In this document: positions 6,593 through 30,354 of the stretch, in pieces
Numbering within the stretch: position 1 is the stretch's first letter
How the letters are laid out: each line of letters begins with the position of its first letter
Assembly (NCBI RefSeq): GCF_000023965.1
Contig: NC_013202.1
Span: 2,970,001 to 3,002,000 of the forward strand
Source of the DNA: Halomicrobium mukohataei DSM 12286
Lineage (GTDB): Archaea; Halobacteriota; Halobacteria; Halobacteriales; Haloarculaceae
Length of the DNA: 32,000 nucleotides
Reading direction: 5' to 3'
The notes under the pieces: generated by a model
What the model was told of the DNA's origin: nothing
Seen by the model: the letters and a program-made list of their open reading frames with translations, nothing else
Databases searched by the model: none
Translations under genes and position numbers: made by a program

Positions 6593-6594
6593 GA

Positions 6595-7398: not shown

Positions 7399-7402
7399 TG
7401 TT

Positions 7403-8260
7403 CTATTGTAGTGGCCGCGGCAGCGCGGTGAACGTCACCTGGGTCGGGCTGAACGGATCGTACACCGACTGGTGGCACTGGCAGTACACCTTGTCTTCGG
7501 CGTTGTACGCGGCAGCGCCCGAGAGCGTCTTGTAGCCGGGAACACAGCAGAAGTGGGTACACTTGTTGACCCAGGCCATGAACGACTGTTCGGTCGCCTC
7601 GGCGAAGTACTGCTGGACCGGGCCGGGGATGCTGGAGTACTTGCCTTCCCCGTTCGCGATCTTGGGGACCTCCGGGGATCGGAGGACCTGGACGGTGATG
7701 TTCTGTACGTCACCCTCGGACCGCCAGTTCGCGGTCGCGGGTTTGCCCAGTCCTTCGCTCCCGATGTCGTTGCCCCACTCCTCGTAGTCGTCGAACATGT
7801 CGACCGTGAGGGGGTCGCCGTCGGAGTACTCGGACTGCCAGTCGTAGTCACCCGTCGTCATGGTGAACGTGTTGTTCTGTTCGGCCTGTGGCTGGACGCC
7901 CTCGGCCGTCTGGAGTCCACAGTACTGGAGCATCTGCGAGGAGTAGGGGATACCGCTGCCCCCGAAGTCGTCCTCGATTGCGATCCCGCGCTCGGGGTCG
8001 TACTCGGGCCAGTGACCCTGTAGCTCCCCGCTCTCGATCGTGATCGGGATGATCGGCATACCTCGTGGAGCCGGACCCGCCGTGTTTTCGATCGCGACGT
8101 AGGTCGAGGAACCGCCACCGACACCGCCCGACGAGGTCGTGGTTTCGAGGGCCGCCGCGCCGCCAGCGCCGACGCTCGACAGCGTCGCGCTCCCGACGAC
8201 GCCCTTGACGAACCGTCGACGGCCGGATTCGGCCGGATACTTGTCTTCGTCTAGTGGCAT
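7403..8260 (-). CDS. Rieske [2Fe-2S] protein with a Tat signal
   Basis: The twin-arginine signal is GRRRFVKGVVGS. The Rieske boxes are CTHFCC and CQCHQS. Confidence 0.9.
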   Translation of the reverse strand: MPLDEDKYPAESGRRRFVKGVVGSATLSSVGAGGAAALETTTSSGGVGGGSSTYVAIENTAGPAPRGMPIIPITIESGELQGHWPEYDPERGIAIEDDFGGSGIPYSSQMLQYCGLQTAEGVQPQAEQNNTFTMTTGDYDWQSEYSDGDPLTVDMFDDYEEWGNDIGSEGLGKPATANWRSEGDVQNITVQVLRSPEVPKIANGEGKYSSIPGPVQQYFAEATEQSFMAWVNKCTHFCCVPGYKTLSGAAAYNAEDKVYCQCHQSVYDPFSPTQVTFTALPRPLQ

Positions 8261-8262
8261 AG

Positions 8263-8679
8263 TTATTTCTTGTAGTAGGGGTAGACCGCTCGTTTGATGC
8301 TCTCGACGGGATCGTCACCGCCGAAGGACTCGCCGTCGACGTCTTCCTCTCGGATGTAGAGGTCTTCCCACTTGCGACGACGCTTCTTGACGATCATCAC
8401 GTCGGGGAGGAACTCCTTGCGATACAGCAGCATGATAAAGGCGAGGTCGACGAAGATCACGGTCAACACGCCGCCCATGAACATGTTGGCGTTGATGAGC
8501 CGCGATGTCAGGGACGGCCCGACGCCCGAGGCCCAGCCCGCGAGGATGCCGTAGGTGAACAGACCGACGAAGACGACCTCGATGATCGTCAGGAGGACGA
8601 TCCCCAGGGCTGCCGCCGTACTCTCTCGTGGCTGTTCGTAGCGATGAATGTCGCCGTAGTTAGAGCCTGTCGAGGACAT
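8263..8679 (-). CDS. Small integral membrane protein encoded between the halocyanin and Rieske genes
   Basis: It has 3 hydrophobic helices. Its start shares 1 nt with the halocyanin stop (TGATG), and its stop lies 2 nt before the Rieske start. Confidence 0.7.
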   Translation of the reverse strand: MSSTGSNYGDIHRYEQPRESTAAALGIVLLTIIEVVFVGLFTYGILAGWASGVGPSLTSRLINANMFMGGVLTVIFVDLAFIMLLYRKEFLPDVMIVKKRRRKWEDLYIREEDVDGESFGGDDPVESIKRAVYPYYKK

Positions 8680-9353
8680 CAGTTGTTCCCTCCTTTGGTG
8701 TTCGCCGATTCACCGTACTTCAGCAGGTAGAACGTGAAGATCGTCGAGACGACCATCGCGAGTCCTGCACCGATACCGACCCAGTGGGGCTGGATCGGCA
8801 CACCGGCTTCCTCGGGATCGAGGGTCTCGACTTCACCGCCGCCGTCGCCGCCGGAGTCAGCCGTGGGGTAGTCGGAGCCGACGACGATGGCACCTTTCAT
8901 GTTGAGGCTCTTGTGGGGCACACAGTAGTACGGGTAGATACCGTCCTCTTCGAAGGTGTGCTCGTACTCGACGCCGGTCGTGTCGACGGCGTCGCCGGAG
9001 TCGAGCGGTCCGTCGCCGTCGGAGACGACGTTGTGTCGGCCGCCTTCGCCGGTCCACTCGAACTGGACGGTCGCACCGTTGTCGACGTGGACCGCTGCTG
9101 GCCCGAAGCCGAAGGCACCGCCGTTTGCCTGGACGCCGACCTCGACGGTCGTCGAGTCCTGCCCCGTGGCGTCGACGGTCTCGCCGTCGAAGTTGCTCAC
9201 GCTGCCTAACCAGTCGCCGTAGTCCGGTGTGCCGCCACCGCCGCCGCCGTCGCCGCCTTCCTCCTCCTGGGCGACGGCAGCACCGGTGGCGCTGGCGGCC
9301 GCGGAGGCCCCAGCGACACCTCCGGCAGTCCGGACAAACTCCCGCCTATTCAT
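8679..9353 (-). CDS. Halocyanin (type-1 blue copper protein) with a Tat signal and a C-terminal TM anchor
   Basis: The start is the ATG at 9353 (MNRREFVRTAGG...). A Gly-rich linker follows. The copper-site motif is YYCVPHKSLNMKG (Cys-His-Met), and the C-terminal helix is GIGAGLAMVVSTIFTFYLL. Confidence 0.9.
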   Translation of the reverse strand: MNRREFVRTAGGVAGASAAASATGAAVAQEEEGGDGGGGGGTPDYGDWLGSVSNFDGETVDATGQDSTTVEVGVQANGGAFGFGPAAVHVDNGATVQFEWTGEGGRHNVVSDGDGPLDSGDAVDTTGVEYEHTFEEDGIYPYYCVPHKSLNMKGAIVVGSDYPTADSGGDGGGEVETLDPEEAGVPIQPHWVGIGAGLAMVVSTIFTFYLLKYGESANTKGGNN

Positions 9354-9381
9354 AGACGTGCTGAACTCAGGACCGAATTTG

Positions 9382-9387
9382 TATAAA
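9382..9387 (-). promoter_or_regulatory. TATA box (TTTATA on the minus strand) of the halocyanin/bc operon
   Basis: GGGTTTATACAAATT lies ~29 nt upstream of the ATG at 9353. Confidence 0.55.
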
Positions 9388-9414
9388 CCCACCGAATACC
9401 GCCAGCAGGCACCG

Positions 9415-10278
9415 TTATCCTTCGTGTTGACCGTCCTCACTCTCCCCGGAACTGTCGGGTTCCAGCGCCGGTACGAACTCCGGACGCTCTCCGTCCGAGA
9501 GGCCGATCGCCCGGAGCCGATCGCGGTACTCCTCCGAGCGGAACTTGTCCGAGAGGCGGGCGTTGGCGACCACCAGGAAGAGCACGAGCGCGATCGCCAG
9601 GAACGCCAGCCCGGCGACGATCAGTAGGACCGGGCTCGCACCCGCACCGCCGATCTGATCGATCGCTGCGAGGAAACCGCCGCCGAGCAGTACGATCCCG
9701 GCGAGCAACTGGATCCCGGCGATCAGCTGGAGCATCCAGTTGCCAAGCTCGCTGCCCCCCTCGGGGACCTCGTCCGGTTCCGGGAGCGGGTCGTCGCTGG
9801 GCGGTTCCGGCACGTCGTAGTCGTCCATCGAACAGAGCGCGACGGTCGGCTTCACGTCGCGCAGCACCGTCCCGTGCCCCTCGACGGTCCCGTCGGGAAA
9901 GACCAGCGCGTACCCCTCGTCGGAGTACGCGAGCACGCGCTGGGGGTCCGTGTGGCGTTCGACGCGGGCGAACACCTCGCGGGTGGCGACGCGCGAGCGG
10001 AGGTCGTCGGCCACCCGATCGAGCAGCGCGCCACCGGTGATCCAGCTCTCCTCCTCGAAGGCGACTTCCCACTCTTGGGCGGTCATCTTCGCCATGTCCT
10101 CGGGGCCGAAGTCGTCGAAGTCGTACTTCTCTTCGACCTCCGCCCGGAGCGCCTCGACCGACGCCTCGTCGGTGGCTGACCCGGACGACTGCTCGCCGTC
10201 GGCGTCGATCCCGCTGTCGGCTGTCGCCCCCTGCTGGTCGGCGTCGTCTCCCGGCGGCGTCGATTGCGGGTCGGCCAT
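9415..10278 (-). CDS. Conserved haloarchaeal protein: acidic soluble domain plus C-terminal 2-3 TM helices
   Basis: The ATG-initiated ORF begins with an Asp/Glu-rich N-terminus and continues with LIAGIQLLAGIVLLGGGFLAA...LLIVAGLAFLAIALVLFLVV. Confidence 0.7.
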   Translation of the reverse strand: MADPQSTPPGDDADQQGATADSGIDADGEQSSGSATDEASVEALRAEVEEKYDFDDFGPEDMAKMTAQEWEVAFEEESWITGGALLDRVADDLRSRVATREVFARVERHTDPQRVLAYSDEGYALVFPDGTVEGHGTVLRDVKPTVALCSMDDYDVPEPPSDDPLPEPDEVPEGGSELGNWMLQLIAGIQLLAGIVLLGGGFLAAIDQIGGAGASPVLLIVAGLAFLAIALVLFLVVANARLSDKFRSEEYRDRLRAIGLSDGERPEFVPALEPDSSGESEDGQHEG

Positions 10279-12335: not shown

Positions 12336-12869
12336 ATGCCCGGCCCAGTGTTCATCGACGGCGACGGCGTCGAGTTGCGGACGATCGAGCGCGAAGACCT
12401 CGACTTCTGTCGGCAGACCCTGAACGATCCGGCGGTCCGTTCGGGACTCGCCGCGACCGATCCGCTGACGAGTAGCGACGAAGAGGAGTGGTACGAGCGC
12501 CACGTCGTCGAGGGAGACGACGTGCACTTGCTGGTCTGTGACGACGGCGAACCAGTGGGGACCGTCGGCCTCAACGGCGTCAACGAGACGTTCGGCAACG
12601 CGGAGCTTGGCTACTGGATCGCCCCCGACTACCACCGGAACGGCTACGCGACGGCGGCGGCCCGAGCGCTCGTCGACTACGCGTTCACGGAGCGGCGGCT
12701 CCACAAGGTGTACGCCAACGCCTTCGCGTTCAACGAGGGATCCCAGCGTGTCCTCCAGAAGGTCGGCTTCGAGCGGGAGGGAGTCCACCGAGAGCAGGCC
12801 TTCATCGACGGCGAGTACGTCGACGTGTACCGATACGGCCTCCTGGCACCCGATCACACGGCACCGTGA
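12336..12869 (+). CDS. GNAT family N-acetyltransferase (RimJ/RimL-like)
   Basis: Motifs are ELGYWIAPDYHRNGYATAAARALVDYAF and NEGSQRVLQKVGFEREG. I take the ATG at 12336; the GTG at 12324 is an alternative. Confidence 0.85.
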   Translation: MPGPVFIDGDGVELRTIEREDLDFCRQTLNDPAVRSGLAATDPLTSSDEEEWYERHVVEGDDVHLLVCDDGEPVGTVGLNGVNETFGNAELGYWIAPDYHRNGYATAAARALVDYAFTERRLHKVYANAFAFNEGSQRVLQKVGFEREGVHREQAFIDGEYVDVYRYGLLAPDHTAP

Positions 12870-12903
12870 GGTTCATGCGCGCGAGCGGAGTATCACCTCG
12901 CGT

Positions 12904-14346
12904 ATGATCGAACTGACGGGTGACCACACCACGGCCCGGGTCATGGTCGAGGACGAGTCGCTGGTCGAGGAGAACTGCCTCGACCAGATCCGGACGCTGA
13001 TCGACCACCCCGCGTTCACCGAACCGGTCCGCGTGATGCCAGACACCCACTGGGGAGCCGGCGCACCGATCGGCTTCACGATGCCACTCGGCGAGCGCAT
13101 CGTCCCCAACATCGTCGGCGTCGACGTGGGCTGTGGGATGGCCGCGACGAAGTTGGGCTCGACGCTCCCGCTCTCGGACGCCGAGCGCGAACGCCGCGTG
13201 CGCGAGGCGATTCCGATGGGCCAGACCGTCCACGACTACGACGACGCGGTCCACCTGGTAGAGGAGTTCCCCTTCGAGCGGGCCAACGAGGTCTTCGAGG
13301 CGTTCGCGGCCAGCTTCGAGGAGCGGTTCGGCACCGCGATCGATCCCCTGGAGTTCGACTTCGAGGGCTACGACGCCGACTACTTCGAGTCGCTCTGTGA
13401 GCGGGTGCTGGCCCAGCAACGCCAGAGCATGGGCTACGTCATCCGCGGGGTCGGGACGCTGGGCGGTGGCAACCACTTCGTGGAGTTCGCTCGCGCCCAG
13501 ACGACCGGGGACTACTGGCTGATCGTCCACAGCGGCTCGCGATACCTGGGCAAGTCGGTCGCCGAGTACTGGCAGGGCAAAGCGACCGAGCGGCGCAACG
13601 TCGCGACGATCCGCGATTCACTCCCGGAGCGGTACCACGAGTACCTTCAGTTTGACCCCACGGCGGTCTCGGATCGAGACCTCTACGAGTGGGTCACCGG
13701 CGGCAAGGGCGAGTCTCACCTCCGGAAAGACGCCATCCGCGAGGCGTTCGACGGCGGCGAGATCGAAGACGTCTTCGACCGGCTGAGCGATCTCCGGCCC
13801 GACAGCGGCGACCGCAACACCGACCTCGACTACCTGGTGGGCCGGGAGGCCCACGGCTACTACGTCGACATGCTGTTCGCCCAGCAGTACGCCCGCTGGA
13901 ACCGCGCGGTCATGTCCGACCGGATCTGCGAGGTCATCGGCGTCGAGCCCGTCGAGCGCTTCCAGTCGATCCACAACTACGTCGACTTCCGCGACCTGAC
14001 GATCCGCAAGGGCGCGACGCCCGCTCGCGAGGGCCAGCGACTGATCGTCCCCTTCAACATGGCCGAGGGGTCGCTGCTGGCACGCGGGCGGGGCAACGAC
14101 GAGTGGCACGACACGGCCCCCCACGGCGCGGGCCGCGTGATGGGCCGAGGCGAGGCCCACCGCACCGTCGACATGGACGAGTTCGAGGCGGCGATGGAGG
14201 GCGTCTACTCCGAGTCCGTGGTCGAGTCGGTCCGCGACGAGGCACCGATGGCCTACAAGTCCGCCGACGCCATCGCCGACGCGATCGAACCGACCGCCGA
14301 GGTCGAAGACTGGCTCGACGCCGTCCACAACCTCAAGGCGAAGTAG
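12904..14346 (+). CDS. rtcB: RNA 3'-phosphate/tRNA-splicing ligase RtcB
   Basis: The start is the ATG at 12904 (MIELTG...). Motifs are MPDTHWGAGAPIGF, GVDVGCGM, GGGNHFVE and a C-terminal HGAGR. The upstream part of the ORF (12538-12903) overlaps the GNAT gene in another frame and is low-complexity. Confidence 0.92.
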   Translation: MIELTGDHTTARVMVEDESLVEENCLDQIRTLIDHPAFTEPVRVMPDTHWGAGAPIGFTMPLGERIVPNIVGVDVGCGMAATKLGSTLPLSDAERERRVREAIPMGQTVHDYDDAVHLVEEFPFERANEVFEAFAASFEERFGTAIDPLEFDFEGYDADYFESLCERVLAQQRQSMGYVIRGVGTLGGGNHFVEFARAQTTGDYWLIVHSGSRYLGKSVAEYWQGKATERRNVATIRDSLPERYHEYLQFDPTAVSDRDLYEWVTGGKGESHLRKDAIREAFDGGEIEDVFDRLSDLRPDSGDRNTDLDYLVGREAHGYYVDMLFAQQYARWNRAVMSDRICEVIGVEPVERFQSIHNYVDFRDLTIRKGATPAREGQRLIVPFNMAEGSLLARGRGNDEWHDTAPHGAGRVMGRGEAHRTVDMDEFEAAMEGVYSESVVESVRDEAPMAYKSADAIADAIEPTAEVEDWLDAVHNLKAK

Positions 14347-18302: not shown

Positions 18303-18452
18303 AGCCGTGTGTTCGTGACAGTGGCATAAATAGCTCCGGCGACACCGCTGTAACCGGGTGTGCTGAAAGAAACGATCGGAAACGATCCGCCCGGTTATTG
18401 GCGCTGATAGCGTGGCCACATCGCTTTTGCTGTCACCGTCCCACGGTGAGCT

Positions 18453-20405
18453 ATGGCGGACATTGCAGCGGGGCCAGACCAGAACCACAGTCGACGAAGC
18501 TGGGGAGCGACGCTCCGAGAATTCGTCGAGTACATTCCGAGCGGCGACACGATTCCAGACGAGACGTGGCGTGGACGCCACCGGAACGTGCTCCGCTTGC
18601 TGGTGGCACACGTGCCCGTCCTGCTGGCACTCGGTCTCGCCGACGGGACGGAGTCGATGGTGACCGGTGCGCAGTTGCCAGAGATTCCGGTCACGCACGT
18701 CCTGGCGGAAGTCGGCGTCGTCGTCACGCTGGCGATCGCAGCGTGGCTGGCGCTGTTCAAGCGGCGAACTCGGACCGCGCTCGCGACTCTGGGGCTCGTG
18801 ACGACCTCGGGATTCCTGGTTCACTTCTCGGGGGGCTACATCGAGGCGCACTTCCACTTTTTCGTCGTGATGGCCGTCGTCGCCGTCTACGAGGACTGGC
18901 TCCCCTTCGTTCTGGGGATCGGGTACGTCGCGCTCCAGCACGGCTACTTCGGCATGATCGATCCGAGTCGGGTGTACAACCACGCTGCCGCGATCAACAA
19001 CCCCTGGGCCTGGGCGTTCATCCACGCCGCGTTCGTGCTGGGCCTGGCCGCCGCACTGATGGCACACTGGTACTCGACCGAGCGGTCCCGAGAGCAGGCC
19101 CAAGAGCAGCTGCGGCAGGCCCGCGAAAAGACCGAAGAGATCGAGGATCTGGAGGCGAAACAGGCCGAGATCGAGCGCGCGAAAGCCGAGGCCGAGGAGG
19201 CGAGAGCAGCGGCCGAGGCCAAACGCGACGAGGTCGAGCAGCTGTACGAGCGACTGGAGGCCGACGCCGACGACTGCAGCGCAGCGATGGCACGAGCGGC
19301 AAACGGCGACCTCACCGTGCGCCTCGAAACCGACAGCGACAGCGAAGCGATGGCCCAGATCGCGGTCTCGTTCAACGAGATGATCGCAGAGACCGAAGCG
19401 ACGATACAGGAGATCCAGTCGTTCGCCCAGGAGGTCGCGGACGTCAGCATGCAAGCAAACGCCAGCGCCGACGAGGTCAAGCAGGCCAGCGAGGGCATGA
19501 GCGGCTCGATACAGGAGATCGCGAGCGGCGCGAGCGAACAGCGCGAGCGGCTCGCCAGCGTCGCCGACGAGATGACCGACCTCTCGGCGACGGTCGAAGA
19601 AGTGGCCGCATCGGCCGAGACGGTCGCCGACAGTTCGCGCGAGACCGCCGAGATCGCCGAGGCCGGCGAGACGACCGCACGACGAGCGATCGAGAACGCA
19701 CGCGAGGTCCAGGCCGCCATCGACGAGACGGTCGACAACGTCGAACTTCTCGACGAGCAGATGGCAGAGATCAGCGAGATCGTCGAGCTGATCGGCGACA
19801 TCGCCGAGCAGACGAACATGCTGGCGCTCAACGCCAACATCGAGGCTGCTCGTGCCGGCGGCGAGAGCGGGACCGGTGGCGGTGGGGGGTTCGCCGTCGT
19901 CGCCAACGAGGTCAAGCAACTGGCCGAGGAGACCCAGGAGTCGGCCGCCGAGATCGAACAGCGGATCGAACGGACCCAGAGCCAGACCGACGCGACCGTC
20001 GAAACGGCCCGCAGCGCCGAAGCGGACATGCAGTCGGAGGTCGAGGCCGTCGAAGCGGTCGCCGAGTCGTTCCGGCAGGTCGCCGAAAACGCCGAGCAGA
20101 CCGACGACGGCATCCAGCAGATCAGCGAGACGGCCGACGATCAGGCGGCCAGCACCGAGGAAGCCGTCTCGATGGTCGAAGCGGTCGCAGACATCAGCGA
20201 GTCGACGGCGGACGAGACCGAGAGCGCGTCCGCGGCGGCCCAGCAACAGGCCGCGTCGATGAACCAGGTCAGCACCAGCGTCGAGGCCCTCAGCGAGCAG
20301 ACCGAGCGCCTCCAGACGCTCCTGGGGAAGTTCGAGGTGAACGCGACGGCGACGGACGGCGGGACCGACGCAGGAACGGGCGACCGCGACGCCGGCCGTC
20401 GCTGA
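18453..20405 (+). CDS. Methyl-accepting chemotaxis protein / halobacterial transducer with an N-terminal His-rich 6-TM domain
   Basis: There are six predicted TM helices (aa ~45-215), then a coiled coil and a HAMP-like segment ([24 protein letters not shown]). The MCP signalling hairpin is [45 protein letters not shown]. Confidence 0.92.
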
Positions 20406-23215: not shown

Positions 23216-23262
23216 ATCGCCGCTTCGACGGCCAGCTATGTAACTGTCTGGCACGCTGTCAG

Positions 23263-23447
23263 GGTAGTGTTCAGATAAGCCGCTGTATTTTCTGAGTTGC
23301 AGACACGGAAAGCCCTCGGCCCGCTAGCCAGATCTGTGGCGGATATTCTCCCTCCGGTCGAATAGTGCCGCCGCAGATCGAGCTACCGTGCCTCGCCCTT
23401 TCCGTGCCTGAATGACGTTACTCTCTATCTCTTACCTGAACACCGCC
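23263..23447. mobile_element. MITE, 185 bp, with 17-bp terminal inverted repeats and an 8-bp target-site duplication
   Basis: The left end is GGTAGTGTTCAGATAAG. The right end, reverse-complemented, is GGCGGTGTTCAGGTAAG. Subterminal CACGGAAAGCCCTCG / its inverse are present. The direct repeat GCTGTCAG lies at 23255-23262 and 23448-23455. There is no ORF. The same family occurs at 28522-29057. Confidence 0.85.
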
Positions 23448-23515: not shown

Positions 23516-24667
23516 TCAGGGCGTCTCGACGTCGAGGGTCACCACGTCCGACAGGCGGAGTTCGTCGCCGGGTCCGATCGGTTCCCGATCGCCCTTCGAC
23601 AGCCGGGTGCCGTTGAGCTCGGTGGGATTATCGCCGAGGTCGACCACGTAGAACTGGTCGTCGTCGCGCACGAAGCGGACGTGTTCGCGGTGGATCAGCA
23701 CGGACGTGTCGTCGTCCTCCCCGGCGTCGGCCAGCAGCGACCGGATCTCTCGACCGACGGTCTCGTCGTCGCCGACGACGACAGACTGCCCGTAGGCGGA
23801 GAGCGCGAGTCGAGACGGCGCGACGGTCCCGCTCGCGTCGCTCCCGCGATGGGCGTCCAGGTCCTCACCGCAGGACGCACAGAAGGCGTCGTCGGGACCC
23901 ACGTCGCTCCCACAGCCGGGACAGGCGTCGAGGGTCGTCTCGTCCGCGCCGCGGTGGGCGTCCAGATCCTCACCGCAGGACGCACAGAAGGCGTCGTCGG
24001 GACCCACGTCGCTGCCACACTCCGGACAGGCGTCGAGGGTCGTCTCGTCTTCGTCTTCCTCGGCGGTGCGGTGGGCGTCCAGATCCTCCCCACAGCCCGG
24101 ACAGAAGGCGTCCGACGGGTCGACGGCAGTGTCACACTCGGGACAGCTCCCCAGCGTCGCCGTCTCGTCGGACTCGCCCGTTTCGTCGTCGGCGTCGTCC
24201 GCGGTGTCGGCAGGCTCGCTCGTCTCCGCGCCCCCCTCGCCGACGGCGTCGTCTCGTTCCGGCGCGTCGTCGGCGTCCTCGGTGCTCGGGCGCTCTGGCT
24301 CGTCCGTCGCCGCGTCGGTCGCCCCGTCCGCGGTGTCTGTGGACTCGCTCGCCGCGTCGGCGAGCGGCGAGTCGTCCGGCTCGGCGTCCGCCTGTGGATC
24401 GGTCGGATCTTCGAGATCCAGATCGTCGTCGCCGAACAGCGGGTTGTCGCTGACGGCGTCGCCTTCTGGGTCGTCTTCCGGTGTCGCCTCGTCTTCGGAC
24501 GCCGTCTCCGCGTCGGCTTCCGAGTCCTCGTCCGAGGTCGATTCGATCTCCCCGTCGTACTGCCACTCCCCACACTCCGAGTTCGTACACCACCCCCCTG
24601 CAGCGGTCGGATCGAACGCTTCGCCACACAGCGGACATTCGACCGACCTACTGGTACTTTCTGACAT
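23516..24667 (-). CDS. Multi-zinc-ribbon, acidic-linker, C-terminal FHA-domain protein (ArnA-like architecture)
   Basis: The N-terminal ribbon is CPLCGE...CTNSEC. A ~120-aa Asp/Glu-rich linker follows, then three CPxCGxxVxPxDAFCxxCGEDLDAHR double ribbons. The C-terminal FHA signature is VGR...HREHVRF...YVVDLGDNPTELNG. Confidence 0.85.
   Translation of the reverse strand: MSESTSRSVECPLCGEAFDPTAAGGWCTNSECGEWQYDGEIESTSDEDSEADAETASEDEATPEDDPEGDAVSDNPLFGDDDLDLEDPTDPQADAEPDDSPLADAASESTDTADGATDAATDEPERPSTEDADDAPERDDAVGEGGAETSEPADTADDADDETGESDETATLGSCPECDTAVDPSDAFCPGCGEDLDAHRTAEEDEDETTLDACPECGSDVGPDDAFCASCGEDLDAHRGADETTLDACPGCGSDVGPDDAFCASCGEDLDAHRGSDASGTVAPSRLALSAYGQSVVVGDDETVGREIRSLLADAGEDDDTSVLIHREHVRFVRDDDQFYVVDLGDNPTELNGTRLSKGDREPIGPGDELRLSDVVTLDVETP
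23846..24150 (-). repeat. Intragenic tandem repeat: two ~105-bp units at ~91 % identity plus one diverged unit, each encoding a double zinc ribbon
   Basis: Units 23846-23950 and 23951-24055 differ at about 9 of 105 positions. A third, diverged unit lies at ~24068-24150. Confidence 0.85.
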
Positions 24668-24692
24668 ACGTGTTCGATCAGTCTACCTACGC

Positions 24693-24700
24693 ATAAAAAA
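24693..24700 (-). promoter_or_regulatory. TTTTTTAT on the minus strand: a possible internal TATA box for the FHA gene and/or oligo-T terminator after the PP2C gene
   Basis: The 42-nt gap between the PP2C stop (24710) and the FHA ATG (24667) contains CTATTTTTTATGCG. The motif lies ~27-30 nt upstream of the ATG. Confidence 0.4.
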
Positions 24701-24709
24701 TAGTTTTCC

Positions 24710-25861
24710 TCACGGCGTTTCCCCTTCCTCCGGGAGCAGAACCGTCTCGCGGTCCTCGATGGGGTCCGTCGCCAGCGCGCGGGTCAGCGGTCGATGCTCC
24801 GGTGTCGCCGGGAGCGCCGGATCCTGCAAGAACAGCGTCGAGAGGTTGTCCTTCCCGCCCCGGTCGTTGGCCATCTCGACGAGCGTCTCGCTGGCCGCGG
24901 CCAGCGATTCGGCCGTCATGACGCACTCTCTGATCTCCTCGTCCGTGACGACGGCGTCGAGGACGCGCTGGGCCGCCGCCTCCGAGCGGTCCGACTCGAC
25001 GTACTCGTCGTACAGTTCCGGGGCGTCGGTCTGGGCGTCGATGAGGCCGTCGCTGGTGACCAGCAACACGTCTTCGGCGTACAGCGGAACGACGTTGCTG
25101 TCGACCGCGACCGTCGCAGCGTCCGGGTCCTGGTCGGCCCCGCCGCCCAGTGCGCGGGTGATCTCGTTGCCTCGGGGGTGGACGTGGGCCGCCACGTCGT
25201 CGATCTCGCCGCGATCGCGGAGTTCCGCCACGACGCCGTGGTCCTTGGTCAGCAGTTCGATCGTCTCGCGCGCCTCGTTGAGCAGGTACGCGCGGCTGTC
25301 GCCGACCCAGGCGTAGTAACACCGACCACCGAAGCAGAGGCCGGCGACGACGGTCGTGTACGCTCGGTTGCCGGTCTCGTTCGTGTATCGGATGATCTCG
25401 CGGTGGGCGGTCGTGATGGCCGCCTCCAGCGCGCTCTGGATCTCGGCCGGCGTCGGCGGGTCGGTCGCGACCGCATCGGGCAGGGTCACGTCGAAGGCGT
25501 CCGGGTCGCTCCGGAGGGCCCGACTCGCAACGTCCTGCAGTTCGGTCGTGATCGTCGTCGTGGCGACGTAGGAGGCCACGTCGCCGGCCTCGTACCCGCC
25601 CGCACCGTCGGCCAGGACGAACGTCGCGACGCTGCGGTTCCGTGGCTCCGATCGACCCTCGGACTCCTCGCCCGTCTCGTCGCGTTCTGCCTCGGCGTCG
25701 GTGCCGTCGTGGGAGTCGTCCGTCTGGCCGTCGGCCTCCTCCGAGCGATCACGGAGGCCGTCGCGGTGGCCCTGTTCGATCACGTCGACCGCGAGACTGT
25801 CCTCGTTGATCCCGCTGGACCGCTTGCGTTCGCCGATGTCGTAGTTCGTCGCGTAGATCAT
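24710..25861 (-). CDS. PP2C-family Ser/Thr phosphatase with an acidic insertion
   Basis: The start is the ATG at 25861 (MIYATNYDIGERKRSSGINEDS...). Motifs are LADGAGG, VGDSRAY, VTSDGL and GGKDNLS. The start overlaps the kinase stop (ATGA). The upstream part of the 588-aa ORF is an Arg-rich shadow over the kinase gene. Confidence 0.88.
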   Translation of the reverse strand: MIYATNYDIGERKRSSGINEDSLAVDVIEQGHRDGLRDRSEEADGQTDDSHDGTDAEAERDETGEESEGRSEPRNRSVATFVLADGAGGYEAGDVASYVATTTITTELQDVASRALRSDPDAFDVTLPDAVATDPPTPAEIQSALEAAITTAHREIIRYTNETGNRAYTTVVAGLCFGGRCYYAWVGDSRAYLLNEARETIELLTKDHGVVAELRDRGEIDDVAAHVHPRGNEITRALGGGADQDPDAATVAVDSNVVPLYAEDVLLVTSDGLIDAQTDAPELYDEYVESDRSEAAAQRVLDAVVTDEEIRECVMTAESLAAASETLVEMANDRGGKDNLSTLFLQDPALPATPEHRPLTRALATDPIEDRETVLLPEEGETP

Positions 25862-27078
25862 GTCTGAGAGACGTTGAACTCGAATGTCGTTCCGTAGCTC
25901 GGGTGGACGAGCGCGATGAGGTCGCCGTCCCCGAGCGCGTGCTCGCTGGGCGGATCCTCGCCGTTTCTGTCGGTCGGATCGCCGCCACGCGCTTCCAGTA
26001 GCTCCTTGCCGCCGGGCTGGAGGAGTCGCTGCCAGCCGGTCTGGGTGTTGACGTAGGTCCCGTTGAGGCTGTGGTCCTCCAGTCGCCAGATCGCCTCGTC
26101 GTTGCTCGTATCGAAGCGAACGTGGATCGGAGAGACGTGCTCGTCGGCGTCGTCGAGCGTGATCGACGGCGTCGTCGCGCCGCCGTCCCGGCCGATCGTG
26201 TCGCCGGGGTGGACGGTGAACGACCGGTCTTCGCCGAGCGCCTCCAGGCTCGCCTGTGGCGGCGGACTGGGGTCTTTGGCCTCCAGCACGTACTTCATCG
26301 AGGTCGCGTTGGGGTAGCGATCCCGGTAGTCGGTCTGTGTCGCGCGGGCGATGATCTCCGCGAGGTACGTCGGGCAGTCGACGCCGAAGTCCCGAGGGTC
26401 GACGCCGTCTTTCTTCGGGACGGTCCCTTTGAGCAAGAACAGGAGGATCTTCCCGATCGAGTACACGTCCGACCACGGGCCCTGCCCGTCCTCGGCGTCG
26501 CTGGCTTCGGCGATCTCTCGGGGCTTGTACGGCCCGAGAATCGTCGTTCCGGCGTCGTCGGCGTCGGTCCCGTCGAACCCAGTCGCCGTGTTGAAGTCGA
26601 TCAAGATCGGGTGGTCCTGTCCGGCGAGCATGATGTTGTCGGGCTTGAGGTCCCGGTAGACGATGTCGTTCTCGTGGAGGAAGCTCATCGCGTCACAGAG
26701 CCCGATCCCGACCCGCCGGACCTCCGGGGGATCGAGCGGTCCGACGCGGTCGATGGCGTCGTCCAGCTCGTAGCCGTCGACGAACTGGACGACCAGCACC
26801 GGGGTGTCGCCCTCGTCGGTGCGCTCGATCAGGTCCATCACGTTGTCGTTGCCCCCCGCCGCCCGGACGGTTTCGAGCGCGTCGGCCTCTTTCAGGAAGT
26901 ACTGCTCGATCACGTCCCGGTCGTTGCTGGAGCCGGCGTAGTTGGGAACCTTCACCGCGACCGTGTCGCCGCTGTCCTCGTCGATCGCCTCGTAGGCGAC
27001 CGCGAAACCGCCGCTGCCGGCCTCGCCCTGGATGCGATACTGGCCGGCGACGAGATCGCCCGCTTCGAACGTCGTCAT
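25858..27078 (-). CDS. Hanks-type Ser/Thr protein kinase with a C-terminal FHA domain
   Basis: Kinase motifs are the G-loop GSGGFAVAY, VAVKV, the catalytic loop YRDLKPDNIM, and IDFNTATG (a DFN variant of DFG). The C-terminal FHA signature is IGRD...PIHVRF...LEDHSLNGTYVN. Confidence 0.9.
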   Translation of the reverse strand: MTTFEAGDLVAGQYRIQGEAGSGGFAVAYEAIDEDSGDTVAVKVPNYAGSSNDRDVIEQYFLKEADALETVRAAGGNDNVMDLIERTDEGDTPVLVVQFVDGYELDDAIDRVGPLDPPEVRRVGIGLCDAMSFLHENDIVYRDLKPDNIMLAGQDHPILIDFNTATGFDGTDADDAGTTILGPYKPREIAEASDAEDGQGPWSDVYSIGKILLFLLKGTVPKKDGVDPRDFGVDCPTYLAEIIARATQTDYRDRYPNATSMKYVLEAKDPSPPPQASLEALGEDRSFTVHPGDTIGRDGGATTPSITLDDADEHVSPIHVRFDTSNDEAIWRLEDHSLNGTYVNTQTGWQRLLQPGGKELLEARGGDPTDRNGEDPPSEHALGDGDLIALVHPSYGTTFEFNVSQT

Positions 27079-27103
27079 CGAGTATCACCGGCGACGCGGG
27101 CCA

Positions 27104-28285
27104 TCACTGGATGCCGTCGTCGCTGTCGACGATCTGGGTCGCCTGGCTCTGTTCGGCACGACCGCCCTCTTTGACGATCTCGGTCTGGCGCTCGGCCTCC
27201 TGGACCGCCTCGGCGTCCTCGCCGTGGATCACTGTCATCTGCTCGACTTTCGTCTCCGCGGCCTCGACGTTGCCCTTGCCGAGCTCCGTCCGGATGACGG
27301 TCTGTTTGTGGTCGATGTCGACGGACTCGTTGTGCTCGGCCAGCTTCTCCTGTTCGTCCGTGTACTCGACGCCGATCTGGTCGCTGGCGGTGTCGCCGCG
27401 GGCCGAGAGCTGTACGTCCGCGAGCACCTCCTCGCTGCCGGGCTCGCGGGGCGGCGCGTGGATCTTGAGGACGACCCGCTGGCTCTCCCGTTCGATCAGG
27501 TCGGGGAGCTTGACCCGGGTGGCGTTTGCCTCCCACTCGGGCGAGACTTCCTGGGCCTGCGGGAGCGCGCGATACACCTCGCTGACCTCGACGCCGGGGG
27601 CCACGTCGAGGTCGAGGTGGGCGTCCGGCGCGACGACGGAGCCGGCCTGCTCGACGGCCTCGCCGAAGAAGTCCTCGATGTCGCCGGGCGCTTCGAGGTG
27701 GGTCCACGTCCCGCGCCCGGCCGTCCCGAGCGTCCGGATCGTGGCCTCGTTGTAGTCGGTCCCGATCCCGGCCGACTGGATCCGGATCCCGGCGTCGTCG
27801 ATGGCTTCGGCCAGCCCCTCGAACTCGTCGGGCGTGCGTTCGTTGTCCTTGCCGTCCGAGAGCAAGAGGAGTCGCTTGACCGTGTCGGGCCCGGTCGCGG
27901 AGGACGACAGCGTCTCCTTGGCGGCCTTGAGCCCGTTGTACATGTCGGTGCCGCCGCCGGCAGTCAGCTCCTCGACGTGGTCCATCGCCGTCTGGCGGTC
28001 GAGATCCGACCACCGTGTCGCGGGCAGGATCACCGTCGCCTCGGTGTCGAACGCGACGATACTCACGTAGTCCTCGTCGGCCAACAGCCCGAAGACCCAC
28101 GCAGCGCCGTCGCGAGCGCGTTTGATGTTGTCACCCTCCATCGACCCGCTCGTGTCGATACAGAGCGCGATGTGGCGTCGCACGTCCGTCTCCTGTTCTC
28201 CCGGCTCGACGTCGATCTCGGCGGTCACGGTCGTGCCGTCGGCCGGTACGTTCGGCCGATTGACGCTCGTCTCGATAGATGCCAT
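27104..28285 (-). CDS. von Willebrand factor A (vWA) domain protein with a C-terminal beta-rich and helical extension (ArnB/TerY-like)
   Basis: The start is the ATG at 28285 (MASIETSV...). The MIDAS motif is CIDTSGSM, and further motifs are ...AGGGTDM... and ...LLLSDGKDN. About 190 aa of extra C-terminal sequence ends in a Glu/Gln/Thr-rich helix. Confidence 0.88.
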   Translation of the reverse strand: MASIETSVNRPNVPADGTTVTAEIDVEPGEQETDVRRHIALCIDTSGSMEGDNIKRARDGAAWVFGLLADEDYVSIVAFDTEATVILPATRWSDLDRQTAMDHVEELTAGGGTDMYNGLKAAKETLSSSATGPDTVKRLLLLSDGKDNERTPDEFEGLAEAIDDAGIRIQSAGIGTDYNEATIRTLGTAGRGTWTHLEAPGDIEDFFGEAVEQAGSVVAPDAHLDLDVAPGVEVSEVYRALPQAQEVSPEWEANATRVKLPDLIERESQRVVLKIHAPPREPGSEEVLADVQLSARGDTASDQIGVEYTDEQEKLAEHNESVDIDHKQTVIRTELGKGNVEAAETKVEQMTVIHGEDAEAVQEAERQTEIVKEGGRAEQSQATQIVDSDDGIQ

Positions 28286-28312: not shown

Positions 28313-28318
28313 TATAAA
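28313..28318 (-). promoter_or_regulatory. TATA box (TTTATA on the minus strand) of the vWA-kinase-PP2C operon
   Basis: AATTTATACATAC lies ~29 nt upstream of the ATG at 28285, in a local AT-rich pocket. Confidence 0.55.
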
Positions 28319-28521: not shown

Positions 28522-29057
28522 GGTGGTGTTCAGATAAGCCGCTGGATTTGGTGAGTTGTAGACACCGAAAGCCCTCGTGCAGTTGCGGTCCCGCGACTCG
28601 CGAGAGCCACAGGCTCTCGCTGGCCTTCGCTCACTTCGTTCGCGAAGAACTCGCTGCGCGCGCTTCGCGTGCTTGCCGAGAGGGACTCTCCGAGTCCCTC
28701 TGGCCGTGCGAACGGGCGCTTTGCGCCCGTGAGCAGACTTCGTCGGGGTTCCCGCAAGGGCCGGCCGGTAGAACCGGCCGGCCATAACGTGACGGCGAAG
28801 CCGTCACGCAGCACTCGCCCTTTCATCCGCCAGGGTTTAGACTGTGAGGCAGCCGAATCCTGGCGTCTGTGCGAACAGGGTGAGCACAGGCTCAGGAGAG
28901 CGTGCTCTCCTGGCGGATGAAAGGGCGAGGCGCGGTCCGGGGTTCTGCGGCGGCACTATCCGAACGCAGTGAGGATATCCGCCACAGAACCCCGGAGCGT
29001 GCCGAGGGCTTTCGGTGCTTCAGACTGCCTTCACCGATCTCTTATCTGAACACGACC
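28522..29057. mobile_element. MITE, 536 bp, same family as 23263-23447 but opposite internal orientation, carrying a ~350-bp hairpin-rich insert
   Basis: The left end is GGTGGTGTTCAGATAAG. The right end, reverse-complemented, is GGTCGTGTTCAGATAAG. Subterminal CACCGAAAGCCCTCG lies at 28563-28577 and its inverse at 29003-29017. The 8-bp direct repeat GCGCACCT lies at 28514-28521 and 29058-29065. There is no credible ORF. Confidence 0.85.
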
Positions 29058-29117
29058 GCGCACCTAGCGGCAAATTTTATGGTAAAGTAGCGAAAACTTC
29101 CGCACGGAGAGATATGT

Positions 29118-29402
29118 ATGCACACACCACAGTCGAACGGCGAGGGCGGACCAGAGACCCGAGAGAGCACTGCGTCGGGAGCGTCTAACCCCGGAGAACA
29201 CGCCGCCTGTGGGCTGGTGGCGCTCCTCGTCATGGGGGTGGCGACACTCTATCTGTATCCCACACTGGTGGTCGCCACGCGACCCCTGTTGCTGCTGTCC
29301 TCGACGGTGATCGTAGTCGCGCTCCTCTGGGTGTGGCTCTCCGTCTGGCTGAGCATCGAGATCGTCCTAGAGTGGCAGACCGCACGAGCGCGTACAGAGT
29401 GA
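29118..29402 (+). CDS. Small 2-TM membrane protein of unknown function
   Basis: The ATG-initiated ORF has two hydrophobic helices (GLVALLVMGVATLYLY; LLLSSTVIVVALLWVWLSVWL). More A/T-ending codons appear than in the neighbouring core genes. Confidence 0.5.
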   Translation: MHTPQSNGEGGPETRESTASGASNPGEHAACGLVALLVMGVATLYLYPTLVVATRPLLLLSSTVIVVALLWVWLSVWLSIEIVLEWQTARARTE

Positions 29403-29680
29403 GGGGCTGCGGTGGCCGTCGCCCCAACATCCCGAACCGCCGACAGCGCCGAAACCTCCAAATCCTCGGGCCGCCCAACACGACCGTGGCAGACATCACG
29501 ACCCGCGTCGCCGAGACCGTCGCCGAGGCGGCCGGCAGCGACGGCTGGTGTTCGCGCGACCAGATCGTGGCGCTGATGACACAACGGGGTGTCGATCGGA
29601 TGGAGATCCAGCGCGCACTCCAGCGCGGCGTCGACGAGCGCCGGCTCGAACGGGACGGCAAGCGGTACCGACGACGCTGA
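29399..29680 (+). CDS. Small basic protein with a winged-helix-like C-terminal half
   Basis: A GTG at 29399 overlaps the upstream stop (GTGA). The sequence ...VADITTRVAETVAEAAGSDGWCSRDQIVALMTQRGVDRMEIQRALQRGVDERRLERDGKRYRRR fits a helix-turn-helix-plus-wing pattern. The start is uncertain. Confidence 0.35.
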   Translation: MRGCGGRRPNIPNRRQRRNLQILGPPNTTVADITTRVAETVAEAAGSDGWCSRDQIVALMTQRGVDRMEIQRALQRGVDERRLERDGKRYRRR

Positions 29681-29682
29681 CG

Positions 29683-30129
29683 ATGCCTGCGCCAGACGAG
29701 GACGGCCGAGAGCGACCCGGCGGCCGTCGACCTGACGACCTGTCTCTCCGGTCGGGCGAGCCACGCATCGGCGGGCGACTGGTCGCCGCACTCGCGGAGG
29801 GGCTGGGGTTGACCCTCGTGGCCAACGGCTTCTACCTCCCGCTGTCGGGTCCCGACAGCACGTGGGGCCACCTCGCACTGGCCGCCTTCGGCGGCGTCGT
29901 CGTACTCGCAGGCGTCCTCGCTCACCGCGGGGACACGCCGTGGCTGACTCTCCCCTTCCCGCTGGTCGGGCTCGCGCTCCTCGTGGTGACGCCGGAATTC
30001 GGCGTCGGATCGCTGTCGGTGACGGCGTGGGCGAACCTCGCAGCACTCGCGACCATCGGCGCGCTCCCGCTCGTGTGGTACCTCCGACAGCGAGCCACGG
30101 CGCGCCACCGGGCCAGAAAGCGCCTCTGA
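29683..30129 (+). CDS. Membrane protein (about 4 TM) of unknown function
   Basis: The ATG at 29683 lies 2 nt after the previous stop. The protein reads MPAPDEDGRERPGG...LVAALAEGLGLTLVANGF...AAFGGVVVLAGVLA...LVGLALLVV...ALATIGALPLVWYL. Confidence 0.5.
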   Translation: MPAPDEDGRERPGGRRPDDLSLRSGEPRIGGRLVAALAEGLGLTLVANGFYLPLSGPDSTWGHLALAAFGGVVVLAGVLAHRGDTPWLTLPFPLVGLALLVVTPEFGVGSLSVTAWANLAALATIGALPLVWYLRQRATARHRARKRL

Positions 30130-30189
30130 TCGACCGCTGGCCAGCCGACAGTCATCAGCCTTTTCTCCCGCCTCGGTGCAACGGAGGAC

Positions 30190-30354
30190 ATGACCGACAC
30201 GGCCCTCCGACAACGACTGGACGCCGCCCTCGTCCTCCTCGCTGCGAACTTCCTCCTCCTGCTGGTGGTCGCGTTCGAGGTCCACCCGCCGGGTGCTATC
30301 GGCGCGCTCGCCCTGACGCTGCTGGTCGCGTACGGACATTTGCGCGGATCGTGA
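30190..30354 (+). CDS. Possible 54-aa 2-TM micro-protein, below the ORF-track cutoff
   Basis: I read it directly from the sequence: MTDTALRQRLDAALVLLAANFLLLLVVAFEVHPPGAIGALALTLLVAYGHLRGS*. Confidence 0.35.
   Translation: MTDTALRQRLDAALVLLAANFLLLLVVAFEVHPPGAIGALALTLLVAYGHLRGS

Follow-up and report, generated by a model that had tools for sequence, protein, structure and literature searches.

When a kinase, its opposing phosphatase, FHA domains and a vWA protein are encoded side by side, with no neighbouring gene that indicates an output, the question is which kind of switch they form and what it controls. Such a locus occupies positions 23516-28285 of the window, the 32,000-nucleotide stretch of Halomicrobium mukohataei DSM 12286 analysed here (NC_013202.1, 2,970,001 to 3,002,000), in which four co-directional minus-strand ORFs encode a vWA protein, a kinase-FHA protein, a PP2C phosphatase and a zinc-ribbon/FHA protein (Table 1). 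An earlier note on this DNA had described these genes and likened them to the ArnA-ArnB system; the ORFs lie exactly as it claimed, its three junctions (gaps of 25 and 42 nt on either side of an ATGA overlap) are all found in the sequence, and profile-HMM searches matched the expected Pfam families throughout. We consider the operon to be an ArnA/ArnB-type phosphorylation switch with its own writer and eraser, a reading to which we assign a probability of roughly 0.6.

Table 1. Features of the locus, in coordinates of the window.
Feature	Position	Strand	Basis
TATA box TTTATA, vWA-kinase-PP2C unit	28313..28318	-	Sequence; 33 nt 5' of ATG
vWA protein, ArnB-type scaffold, 393 aa	27104..28285	-	Pfam VWA 2e-18
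GGTGA, Shine-Dalgarno-like, within 25-nt gap, 6-10 nt 5' of kinase ATG	27085..27089	-	Sequence
Hanks-type Ser/Thr kinase with C-terminal FHA, 406 aa	25858..27078	-	Pfam Pkinase 1e-27, FHA 6e-8
PP2C/PPM phosphatase, 383 aa, start overlaps kinase stop (ATGA)	24710..25861	-	Pfam PP2C_2 2e-9
T-rich TATA-like box TTTTTTAT, in 42-nt gap, ~31 nt 5' of fourth-gene ATG	24693..24700	-	Sequence
Zinc-ribbon/FHA adaptor, 383 aa	23516..24667	-	Pfam DZR 1e-19, FHA 6e-8
Three 105-nt tandem repeats, one 35-aa zinc-ribbon unit each	23833..24159	-	Repeat search, family D1
MITE-like element	23262-23447		
MITE-like element	28522-29062		

In the vWA protein the MIDAS is complete (D44-x-S46-x-S48, T113 and D144), as had been proposed, and is conserved in the orthologues. 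The C-terminal 'extension' of some 190 aa is real, and an AF2 model (pLDDT 91.8) resolves it into further domains, giving a vWA domain, a split beta-sandwich and a Thr-rich C-terminal four-helix bundle (approximately residues 312-383); no Pfam family matched this C-terminal half. The same three-domain architecture, with an intact MIDAS, is found in ArnB, which together with ArnA makes up the module that represses the archaellum in Sulfolobus acidocaldarius (Saci_1210/1211; PDB 8S05, 5A8J). ArnB is the best match among solved structures by sequence, topping the list in a single-sequence search of the PDB (4.8e-10) and leading the next match by five orders of magnitude when the family profile was used (E=1.1e-19, with a weak second stretch aligned across the helical bundle), at an identity of only 18-19%. 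By fold it is among the best, the full-length model giving Foldseek TM scores of 0.78 to 4fx5, 0.72 to ArnB (8s05) and 0.64 to vWA2 (5a8j). Within the bundle, T329, T333, T345, T368 and T383 are invariant in clade 1, and across both clades T383 never varies and T329 is kept in 90% or more of the sequences.

The enzymes expected of a self-contained switch are also intact. The kinase domain (residues 14-270) retains G21xGG, K43, D143/N148 and D161 across 31 orthologues, in which the canonical pThr-contact residues of its FHA domain (R297, S316 and S337-N339) are likewise conserved; the latter domain also holds a conserved insert of about 35 aa. In the phosphatase every metal-binding motif (D21, D85-G86, D188, D271 and D338) is present and kept by orthologues, an acidic insert separates motifs 1 and 2, and NCBIfam Stp1_PP2C matches at 1e-42 with 146 bits, under the model's curated cutoff of 230. 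Here the arrangement departs from that of Sulfolobus, where ArnC, ArnD and PP2A are unlinked to the scaffold and adaptor, and the eraser belongs to the PPP rather than the PPM/PP2C family; the kinase of this locus also differs in carrying an FHA domain itself. A vWA-associated Hanks kinase, a PP2C eraser and an FHA reader, components like those of this locus, gate machine assembly in the PpkA-PppA-Fha1 threonine-phosphorylation pathway of type VI secretion in Pseudomonas aeruginosa, although there the vWA is a periplasmic part of the kinase and zinc ribbons are lacking; its target is the T6SS, and we know of no archaeon with one.

The fourth protein is laid out like ArnA, with a zinc ribbon at the N terminus (C11, C14, C27 and C32), a flexible linker and, at the C terminus, an FHA domain. 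The four ribbons, acidic linker and FHA domain previously described are all present, in a layout that must be corrected to one N-terminal ribbon, an acidic linker of about 130 aa and three further ribbons (175-192, 214-231 and 249-266 in the cysteine map); these extra ribbons and the length of the linker set it apart from ArnA. Most orthologues have the N-terminal ribbon and only two further ones, and the additional ribbon here arose by a 105-nt tandem duplication, copies 1 and 2 sharing 90% identity, an expansion that is, on this comparison, lineage-specific. The FHA domain keeps R306, but the canonical phosphate-binding Ser is replaced by His326 and SxNGT by GDNPT, so that pThr binding by this domain is doubtful. 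Of the 'two pThr readers' first envisaged, that of the kinase is thus canonical and the second uncertain. Neither is there a specific sequence link to the FHA domain of ArnA, which was absent among PDB matches at E<=1.

By analogy with the ArnAB mechanism (PMC6509490, PMC12852372), the kinase would phosphorylate the vWA protein at several threonines of the helical bundle, and the FHA domain of the kinase itself may dock on primed pThr sites, which we propose would make phosphorylation processive. Before phosphorylation the adaptor would be bound only loosely, by its N-terminal zinc ribbon, and afterwards tightly, by its FHA domain, until PP2C returns the complex to its initial state. Once switched, the complex might engage a downstream regulator or machine through protein-protein contacts made by the MIDAS face and the freed zinc ribbons.

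How the four genes are expressed bears on whether they act as one unit. An A/T-rich box lies at an equal distance 5' of the vWA start in 33/33 loci, and the 33-nt spacing from TATA box to ATG suggests that the vWA-kinase-PP2C mRNA is leaderless or near-leaderless. Upstream of the kinase lies GGTGA, which we take to be a Shine-Dalgarno site on the basis of the haloarchaeal anti-SD sequence. The idea of one TATA box and one operon becomes uncertain at the fourth gene, since the 42-nt gap contains a TATA-like box of its own, a candidate internal promoter and/or oligo-T terminator of the upstream unit; similar T-rich boxes are found ahead of fourth-gene orthologues from several genera and from clade 2. 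A single translationally coupled unit therefore probably holds for the vWA, kinase-FHA and PP2C genes but not for the adaptor gene, which probably has its own promoter, shared in relatives with the gene of a membrane zinc-ribbon protein (c5). At one locus (L013) the adaptor gene and c5 have moved away from the triad as a pair.

Across Halobacteria the four components are co-conserved and recur in three different gene orders, with the vWA, kinase-FHA and PP2C triad colinear in all 32 of the 32 related haloarchaeal loci examined, and the packing of writer, eraser, readers and scaffold into one locus thus holds beyond the window. Clade 2 has the order ZnR-FHA>vWA>STK-FHA>PP2C-FHA, in which scaffold and adaptor genes are not only linked, as in the Sulfolobus module, but adjacent; clade 3 is found in Halorubrum and one metagenome contig, and the HArc-gm2 genome holds two paralogous modules.

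The absence of a membrane or output partner, claimed for this locus, holds within the window, but many relatives add c5 and one adjoins a gene for FtsZl1. This leads to an unlikely alternative, that the target of the module is membrane remodelling or a cytoskeletal process and not transcription, with phosphorylation gating the assembly of a Sec23/24-like vWA/zinc-ribbon complex that is recruited to the membrane by c5 or acts with FtsZl1. The c5 gene lies 3' of the adaptor gene in 13 census loci, H. zhouii and HArc-gm2, and its product has 6-7 TM segments as well as an acidic linker and carries at its C terminus a zinc ribbon akin to those of the adaptor. The FtsZl1 connection comes from one distant relative only (L088), which lies immediately 3' of a 1123-aa Tubulin_2/FtsZl1 gene; there a relative of the window's vWA protein (with identities to it of 31% across the C-terminal half and, by tblastn, 35% across residues 2-358) is clustered with ZnR-FHA, STK-FHA, PP2C and Tubulin_2 genes. 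This arrangement matches Huta_2050-2056 of Halorhabdus utahensis, a haloarchaeal locus with a vWA protein and several Ser/Thr kinases that was predicted to be a membrane-remodelling system (Makarova & Koonin 2010, PMC2875224), and ArnAB itself was deposited as 'archaeal ortholog of the Sec23/24 core motif', a resemblance discussed in PMC12852372. Against this, neither c5 nor FtsZl1 is found in the window, the FtsZl1, PQQ propeller and CAP genes of the Halorhabdus locus are absent from it and from every clade-1 and clade-2 locus, and the H. mukohataei/katesii lineage appears to have lost c5 with the other four genes intact. None of the four window proteins has a TM segment; on the ArnA/ArnB-type reading the module is cytosolic and chromosomal.

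Equally doubtful is a role as a stress or DNA-damage-response regulator. The DRA0331-DRA0334 operon of Deinococcus radiodurans (vWA, STPK, FHA protein and KI-FHA-PP2C) combines the identical four domain types, its kinase and phosphatase working in push-pull fashion with docking by FHA, and has a link to radiation-responsive kinases (bioRxiv 10.64898/2026.01.23.701218); the FHA-PP2C fusion of DRA0334 is mirrored in haloarchaeal clade 2, and in Saccharolobus islandicus ArnA (SisArnA) is a global repressor of DNA-damage-response genes (PMC10470591). The Deinococcus kinase, however, has TM helices and no FHA domain, its FHA protein lacks zinc ribbons, and the likeness seen is one of domain types; the bacterial vWA matches examined have unrelated gene surroundings. 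DNA-repair genes are linked at none of the loci, and the module has no DNA-binding domain; the latest ArnAB study saw no direct DNA binding (PMC12852372).

The genomic setting argues against the accessory or conflict island suspected in the earlier note. The flanking MITE-like elements are real, but H. katesii lacks the downstream one at the corresponding position and no such element occurs in H. zhouii, and by this comparison they are recent, incidental insertions. Upstream, genes for an M20 peptidase, GGR, Fer2, DUF7110 and PAPS_reduct are common to three Halomicrobium species, PAPS_reduct being upstream in Halosimplex and Salinibaculum too; the GC content of the locus equals that of its flanks, no PADLOC model matched the vWA, PP2C or zinc-ribbon proteins at E<=0.01, and viral contigs yielded no relative. 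The island is thus not supported, and the module looks vertically inherited within Haloarculaceae. A TerY-P-like or other conflict or defence system is highly improbable: the three-gene composition is similar, the kinase domain has a generic match to PADLOC kinase models and the Halorubrum relative lies in a 51.6% GC stretch, presumably low for that genus, but the kinase is fused to FHA where that of TerY-P has a zinc ribbon or OB fold, the neighbourhood is free of effector, restriction and Ter genes, and position and synteny are conserved across genera. The TerY-P triad (TerY-like vWA, PP2C and STK-zinc ribbon/OB; Anantharaman 2012 and Gao 2020, cited through PMC10542128) is associated with defence systems and predicted to be a metal-sensing phospho-switch.

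An ArnA/ArnB-type switch here would lie in a euryarchaeon, unlike that of Sulfolobus, and a 2021 review found the arnA-arnB cluster seemingly in no euryarchaeote (PMC10117864). The cluster itself is unstudied, and the kind of system is already known; as a default guess, it would control the expression of genes for surface structures or for a stress response.

The four-gene cluster is best read, by analogy with ArnA and ArnB of Sulfolobus acidocaldarius (a zinc-finger/FHA protein and a vWA protein that together repress the archaellum), as an ArnAB-type switch that would come with its own dedicated writer and eraser, a Hanks kinase-FHA protein and a PP2C phosphatase. The four minus-strand genes are present as the earlier note described them, with a 25-nt gap between the vWA and kinase genes that contains a Shine-Dalgarno-like GGTGA, an ATGA stop/start overlap between the kinase and PP2C genes, and a 42-nt gap before the gene for the zinc-ribbon/FHA protein, here termed the adaptor. 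The TATA box ahead of them (TTTATA) is likewise in place, 33 nt upstream of the vWA ATG, and in 33/33 loci a similar A/T-rich box stands ahead of the start codon of the vWA orthologue. Pfam backs every domain call that had been made by eye, namely VWA (2e-18) in the scaffold, Pkinase (1e-27) in the kinase, PP2C_2 (2e-9) in the phosphatase, DZR (1e-19) in the adaptor, and FHA (6e-8) in both the kinase and the adaptor. No transmembrane segments are predicted in any of the four proteins, and neither Rfam nor tRNA scanning gave any match in the window. Seven proteins of the window, these four together with citE, GDH and the PAPS-reductase-like protein, were compared with a Halomicrobium chromosome (GCA_009217585.1, CP045142.1) and show 100% identity to it throughout; NCBI labels the vWA protein MULTISPECIES for Halomicrobium.

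Features of the window and of the related loci retrieved for comparison (L-numbers), with positions in the respective sequence
Feature	Position	Strand	Remark
vWA gene	27104-28285	-	393 aa
Hanks kinase-FHA gene	25858-27078	-	406 aa
PP2C gene	24710-25861	-	383 aa
Zinc-ribbon/FHA (adaptor) gene	23516-24667	-	383 aa
TATA box of vWA gene	28313-28318		
T-rich box ahead of adaptor gene	24693-24700		
MITE-like element, downstream of cluster	23262-23447		shares termini GGTGTTCAGATAAGCCGCTG... with the upstream element
MITE-like element, upstream of cluster	28522-29062		about 540 bp
Inverted repeat within upstream element	28814-28834 / 28909-28929		nested, perfect, 21 nt
Small ORFs	29118-30354	+	94, 64, 148 and 54 aa
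Chemotaxis transducer gene	18453-20405	+	650 aa
Stretch missing from H. katesii locus	18348-20356		roughly 2 kb
Split cytochrome b region	5825-10278	-	
RtcB gene	12538-14346	+	
c5 gene, locus L083	12913-14115		
c5 gene, locus L085	8001-9203		
c5 gene, other loci			L005, L008, L012, L014, L017, L020, L021, L026, L027, L031, L033
Clade-3 cluster and FtsZl1 gene, locus L088	78-12243		
Distant ArnB-like vWA gene, locus L087	7001-8206		

The likeness to ArnB is clearest in the vWA protein, for which an AlphaFold2 model was built on 33 homologues (pLDDT 91.8, pTM 0.87). In this model strands from residues 3-27 and 217-308 surround the vWA core, and residues 312-383 form a C-terminal four-helix bundle; the C-terminal region of about 190 residues that had been described as an extension is thus real, but it is composed of folded parts, the bundle among them, rather than being a tail. 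A Foldseek search of the PDB gave full-length matches to three structures only, 4fx5 (a Catenulispora vWA protein; TM 0.78), 8s05 (ArnB in the ArnAB complex; TM 0.72) and 5a8j (the ArnB paralogue vWA2/ArnE; TM 0.64), and the modelled protein shares the three-part architecture of ArnB, in which a vWA domain with an intact MIDAS, a beta-sandwich and a helical bundle make up the scaffold. By sequence, the best PDB match is ArnB itself (8s05_A), with E-values of 4.8e-10 for the single protein by phmmer and 1.1e-19 for the family profile, the runner-up to the latter scoring 2.5e-14. The alignment supports homology to ArnB, with the significant stretch confined to the vWA domain; the helical bundle is recovered as a weak second stretch (i-Evalue 20). 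In sequence terms the C-terminal half forms a narrow family. It is matched by only 34 representative clusters among 1.84 billion proteins, whose full-length members are nearly all about 390-430 aa and aligned at the same position, and it has no Pfam family even at E<=10.

No variation is seen at the MIDAS residues D44, S46, S48, T113 and D144 among 33 sequences drawn from two clades. All of clade 1 (the Haloarculaceae relatives, including the window) shares the bundle threonines T329, T333, T345, T368 and T383, the last of which is unchanged in clade 2 as well. ArnC phosphorylates several sites of the equivalent ArnB bundle in sequence, which creates a surface on which ArnA's FHA domain docks, while the zinc finger of ArnA binds the junction of beta-sandwich and bundle in unphosphorylated ArnB (PMC6509490, PMC12852372).

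The kinase and phosphatase are predicted to act as an antagonistic pair, as the catalytic residues of both are intact. Among 29-31 orthologues the G-loop, K43, D143, N148 and D161 of the kinase are conserved, as are D21, D85-G86, D188, D271 and D338 of the PP2C, so that these motifs, like the MIDAS, bear out what had been seen in the single sequence. The PP2C matches the NCBIfam model for Stp1-type PP2C phosphatases at 1e-42; its score of 146 bits falls short of the curated cutoff of 230 for this model. The FHA domain of the kinase carries canonical residues (R297, S316 and S337-L-N-G-T) and a conserved insert of about 35 aa.

The adaptor has the layout of ArnA, an N-terminal zinc ribbon followed by a long acidic linker and a C-terminal FHA domain. 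Its first ribbon (C-x2-C...FDP...GG[WF]C) is conserved in both clades; the four ribbons of the H. mukohataei protein resolve into this one and three further ribbons, which ArnA lacks. Most orthologues have two of these, and the third extra ribbon stems from a 105-nt tandem duplication with copies 90% identical. A specific homology between adaptor and ArnA was considered and dropped, as ArnA was retrieved from the PDB at E<=1 neither by the full adaptor nor by an FHA-domain profile; FHA queries return generic FHA domains, such as 1uht (a plant FHA-domain protein), Rad53 FHA1 and GarA. Throughout the Haloarculaceae clade the phosphate-contacting Ser of the adaptor FHA (S85 in Rad53) is replaced by His326 (IHREH) and GDNPT stands in place of SxNGT; the clade 2 adaptor FHA retains SSEH and SRNGT. 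Of the two pThr readers proposed for the cluster, the canonical kinase FHA is therefore secure, and the adaptor FHA of the window is a less certain candidate.

A pattern-plus-tblastn scan of GTDB species genomes recovered 32 haloarchaeal loci, and the triad of vWA, kinase-FHA and PP2C genes is colinear in 32/32. The adaptor gene follows directly in 23 of the 32 and was not detected beside the triad in five others; one locus (L006) is uninformative because its contig ends just past the PP2C gene. In many relatives a fifth gene encodes c5, a membrane zinc-ribbon protein of about 400 aa with 6-7 transmembrane segments, an acidic linker and a C-terminal zinc ribbon, and with no Pfam family apart from weak zinc-ribbon matches. 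In 13 census loci, and likewise in H. zhouii and HArc-gm2, it comes after the adaptor gene, and in locus L013 adaptor and c5 genes lie together some 5 kb from the triad on the opposite strand. The gene is absent from the window and from the H. katesii locus while present in relatives, so it was apparently lost in this lineage; no c5 homologue is named from either species.

Two more distant versions of the cluster differ in gene order. In clade 2 (Natrinema, Halovivax, Natronobacterium, Halobiforma, Salinilacihabitans, Haloarchaeobius and Halobellus; 40-45% identity) the order is adaptor, vWA, kinase-FHA, PP2C-FHA, a fusion that gives the phosphatase an FHA domain too. The genome HArc-gm2 (GCA_025517465.1; L032, L085) holds both a clade 1 five-gene cluster and a clade 2 cluster, with the C-terminal FHA on the PP2C of the latter, which indicates paralogous modules able to coexist. 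Clade 3, more distant still, has the same four components in another order, plus PQQ-propeller and CAP proteins, and was found in Halorubrum ezzemoulense (L086), where a GC content of 51.6% suggests an acquired island, and in a metagenome contig (L088). A separate contig of about 50% GC (L087) carries a distant ArnB-like vWA gene whose product is 25% identical in its C-terminal half. Two Orc1/Cdc6-like genes flank it on one side and an HSP70/GrpE pair on the other; no kinase, PP2C or FHA gene lies alongside it. The pairing of adaptor and c5 genes, the T-rich box ahead of the adaptor gene and the place of the clade 2 adaptor gene upstream of vWA together point to two transcription units, a translationally coupled vWA-kinase-PP2C unit and a probably separate adaptor(+c5) unit, so the single coupled operon first proposed would probably hold for the triad only.

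Under the ArnAB-type reading, the kinase would phosphorylate the vWA bundle at several sites, aided by its own FHA domain, and the adaptor would shift from tethering through its zinc ribbon to FHA-pThr binding. The PP2C would then reset the phosphorylated complex, and a downstream partner may be engaged through the MIDAS face and through zinc ribbons that have come free. The clade 2 reader, writer and eraser each bear an FHA domain, consistent with a model that makes the phosphorylated scaffold a hub for which they compete. The arrangement departs from that of Sulfolobus, where arnA and arnB are adjacent and the kinases and the phosphatase (PP2A, of the PPP family) are encoded elsewhere; in the window the kinase and PP2C genes lie between the adaptor and vWA genes, and the eraser is a PPM enzyme. 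Clade 2, unlike the window, has adaptor and vWA genes adjacent, as in arnA-arnB. The same push-pull logic of kinase and phosphatase has been proposed for the Deinococcus DRA0331-0334 operon (bioRxiv 10.64898/2026.01.23.701218). Orthologous operons in bacteria were also considered and abandoned, as the best bacterial vWA matches, from Polyangiales at about 31% identity, are secreted or lipoprotein-like, are encoded in an unrelated context beside FtsE/X-like genes and have no linked FHA or PP2C genes.

Among rival views of the output, control of the membrane or cytoskeleton draws on c5 and FtsZl1 in relatives. In L088 the cluster lies directly downstream of a 1123-aa Tubulin_2/FtsZl1 gene and resembles the Halorhabdus Huta_2050-2056 locus, from which FtsZl1 was defined and a membrane-remodelling system predicted (Makarova & Koonin 2010, PMC2875224). 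In FtsZl1-associated systems that gene belongs to the same predicted operon, whereas tblastn with the L088 protein found it neither in the window nor in any other fetched locus; searched for within the window, both FtsZl1 and c5 proved absent. A bolder version, which we consider improbable, holds that these modules are not transcriptional regulators but phospho-regulated, Sec23/24-like coat or scaffold complexes at the membrane. The complex would consist of the ArnB-type vWA protein and zinc-ribbon partners, membrane-anchored c5 or, in relatives, an FtsZl1 filament would recruit the scaffold, and kinase and PP2C would gate assembly. Were this so, the clusters would offer a genetically tractable prokaryotic system in which to study how COPII-like vWA/zinc-finger/beta-sandwich/helical cores arose. 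An output in the stress or DNA-damage response is a further rival.

A defence role, and with it the accessory or conflict island suggested by the earlier note, is contradicted by the surroundings of the cluster, by PADLOC and by a viral-contig scan that found no relative of it. At E<=0.01 PADLOC, which we take to include TerY-P models, has no family for the vWA, PP2C or zinc-ribbon/FHA proteins and matches only the generic kinase domain. The kinase of the TerY-P triad carries a C-terminal zinc ribbon or OB fold (PMC10542128) in place of the FHA domain found here, and TerY-P and defence systems show Ter, restriction and effector linkage and a patchy mobile spread, in contrast to a cluster with varied housekeeping neighbours across loci. 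Its GC content equals that of its flanks, the upstream order of M20 peptidase, geranylgeranyl reductase-like, ferredoxin, DUF7110 and PAPS_reduct genes is common to three Halomicrobium species, and PAPS_reduct lies upstream in Halosimplex and Salinibaculum too. The two MITE-like elements said to bracket the cluster are real, but they appear to be recent intergenic insertions and not the boundaries of a mobile unit, the downstream copy being absent at the equivalent site in H. katesii and both being absent from the H. zhouii locus. Archaellum, pilus and defence genes are never among the neighbours in any locus examined, which, for archaellum and pilus genes, agrees with the report that arCOG05332 and arCOG02900 (ArnA/ArnB-family genes) never occur in T4P loci (PMC4858521).

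Several features of the wider window were recorded alongside. Divergent from the vWA promoter lie four small ORFs, at least two of them hydrophobic, which are kept in H. katesii; H. zhouii and HArc-gm2 carry two bPH_2 genes in their stead. A chemotaxis transducer (MCPsignal 1.9e-35, HAMP) that has no Pfam family in the precomputed annotation lies about 3 kb from the cluster, in a stretch lacking from the H. katesii locus, which is colinear elsewhere, and so marks a strain-level indel. The split cytochrome b (PF00033 / PF00032), with a halocyanin-like copper protein and DUF7319, and RtcB are ordinary housekeeping context.

The component set is already familiar from FHA/STK/PP2C clusters, the TerY-P triad, the Deinococcus operon and FtsZl1 loci, and an ArnB-like fold has been noted in Halorubrum (PMC12852372). 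The searchable literature holds no description of a Haloarculaceae-conserved ArnAB-like pair accompanied by kinase-FHA and PP2C genes of its own, nor of the clade variants and the c5 partner, though FHA/vWA neighbourhoods of euryarchaea may be shown in Reimann et al. 2012, which could describe these as well. According to a 2021 review, euryarchaeotes seem to lack an arnA-arnB cluster (PMC10117864); for archaeal PPM phosphatases, a single biochemical study is cited in a 2016 review (PMC5007285). Haloarchaeal Ser/Thr phospho-signalling is almost unstudied, and the ArnAB switch has so far been treated as crenarchaeal. As the genes for scaffold, adaptor, writer and eraser lie side by side, and do so also in species of Haloarcula, a genus with some strains amenable to genetics, the genome itself gives the cognate relations of kinase, substrate, reader and phosphatase, which are directly testable. 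Hints of where the output of ArnAB-type switches may be sought come from the phosphatase FHA, from the membrane zinc-ribbon partner and from FtsZl1 as a neighbour, and the cluster, unsurprising in principle, is a good experimental entry point.
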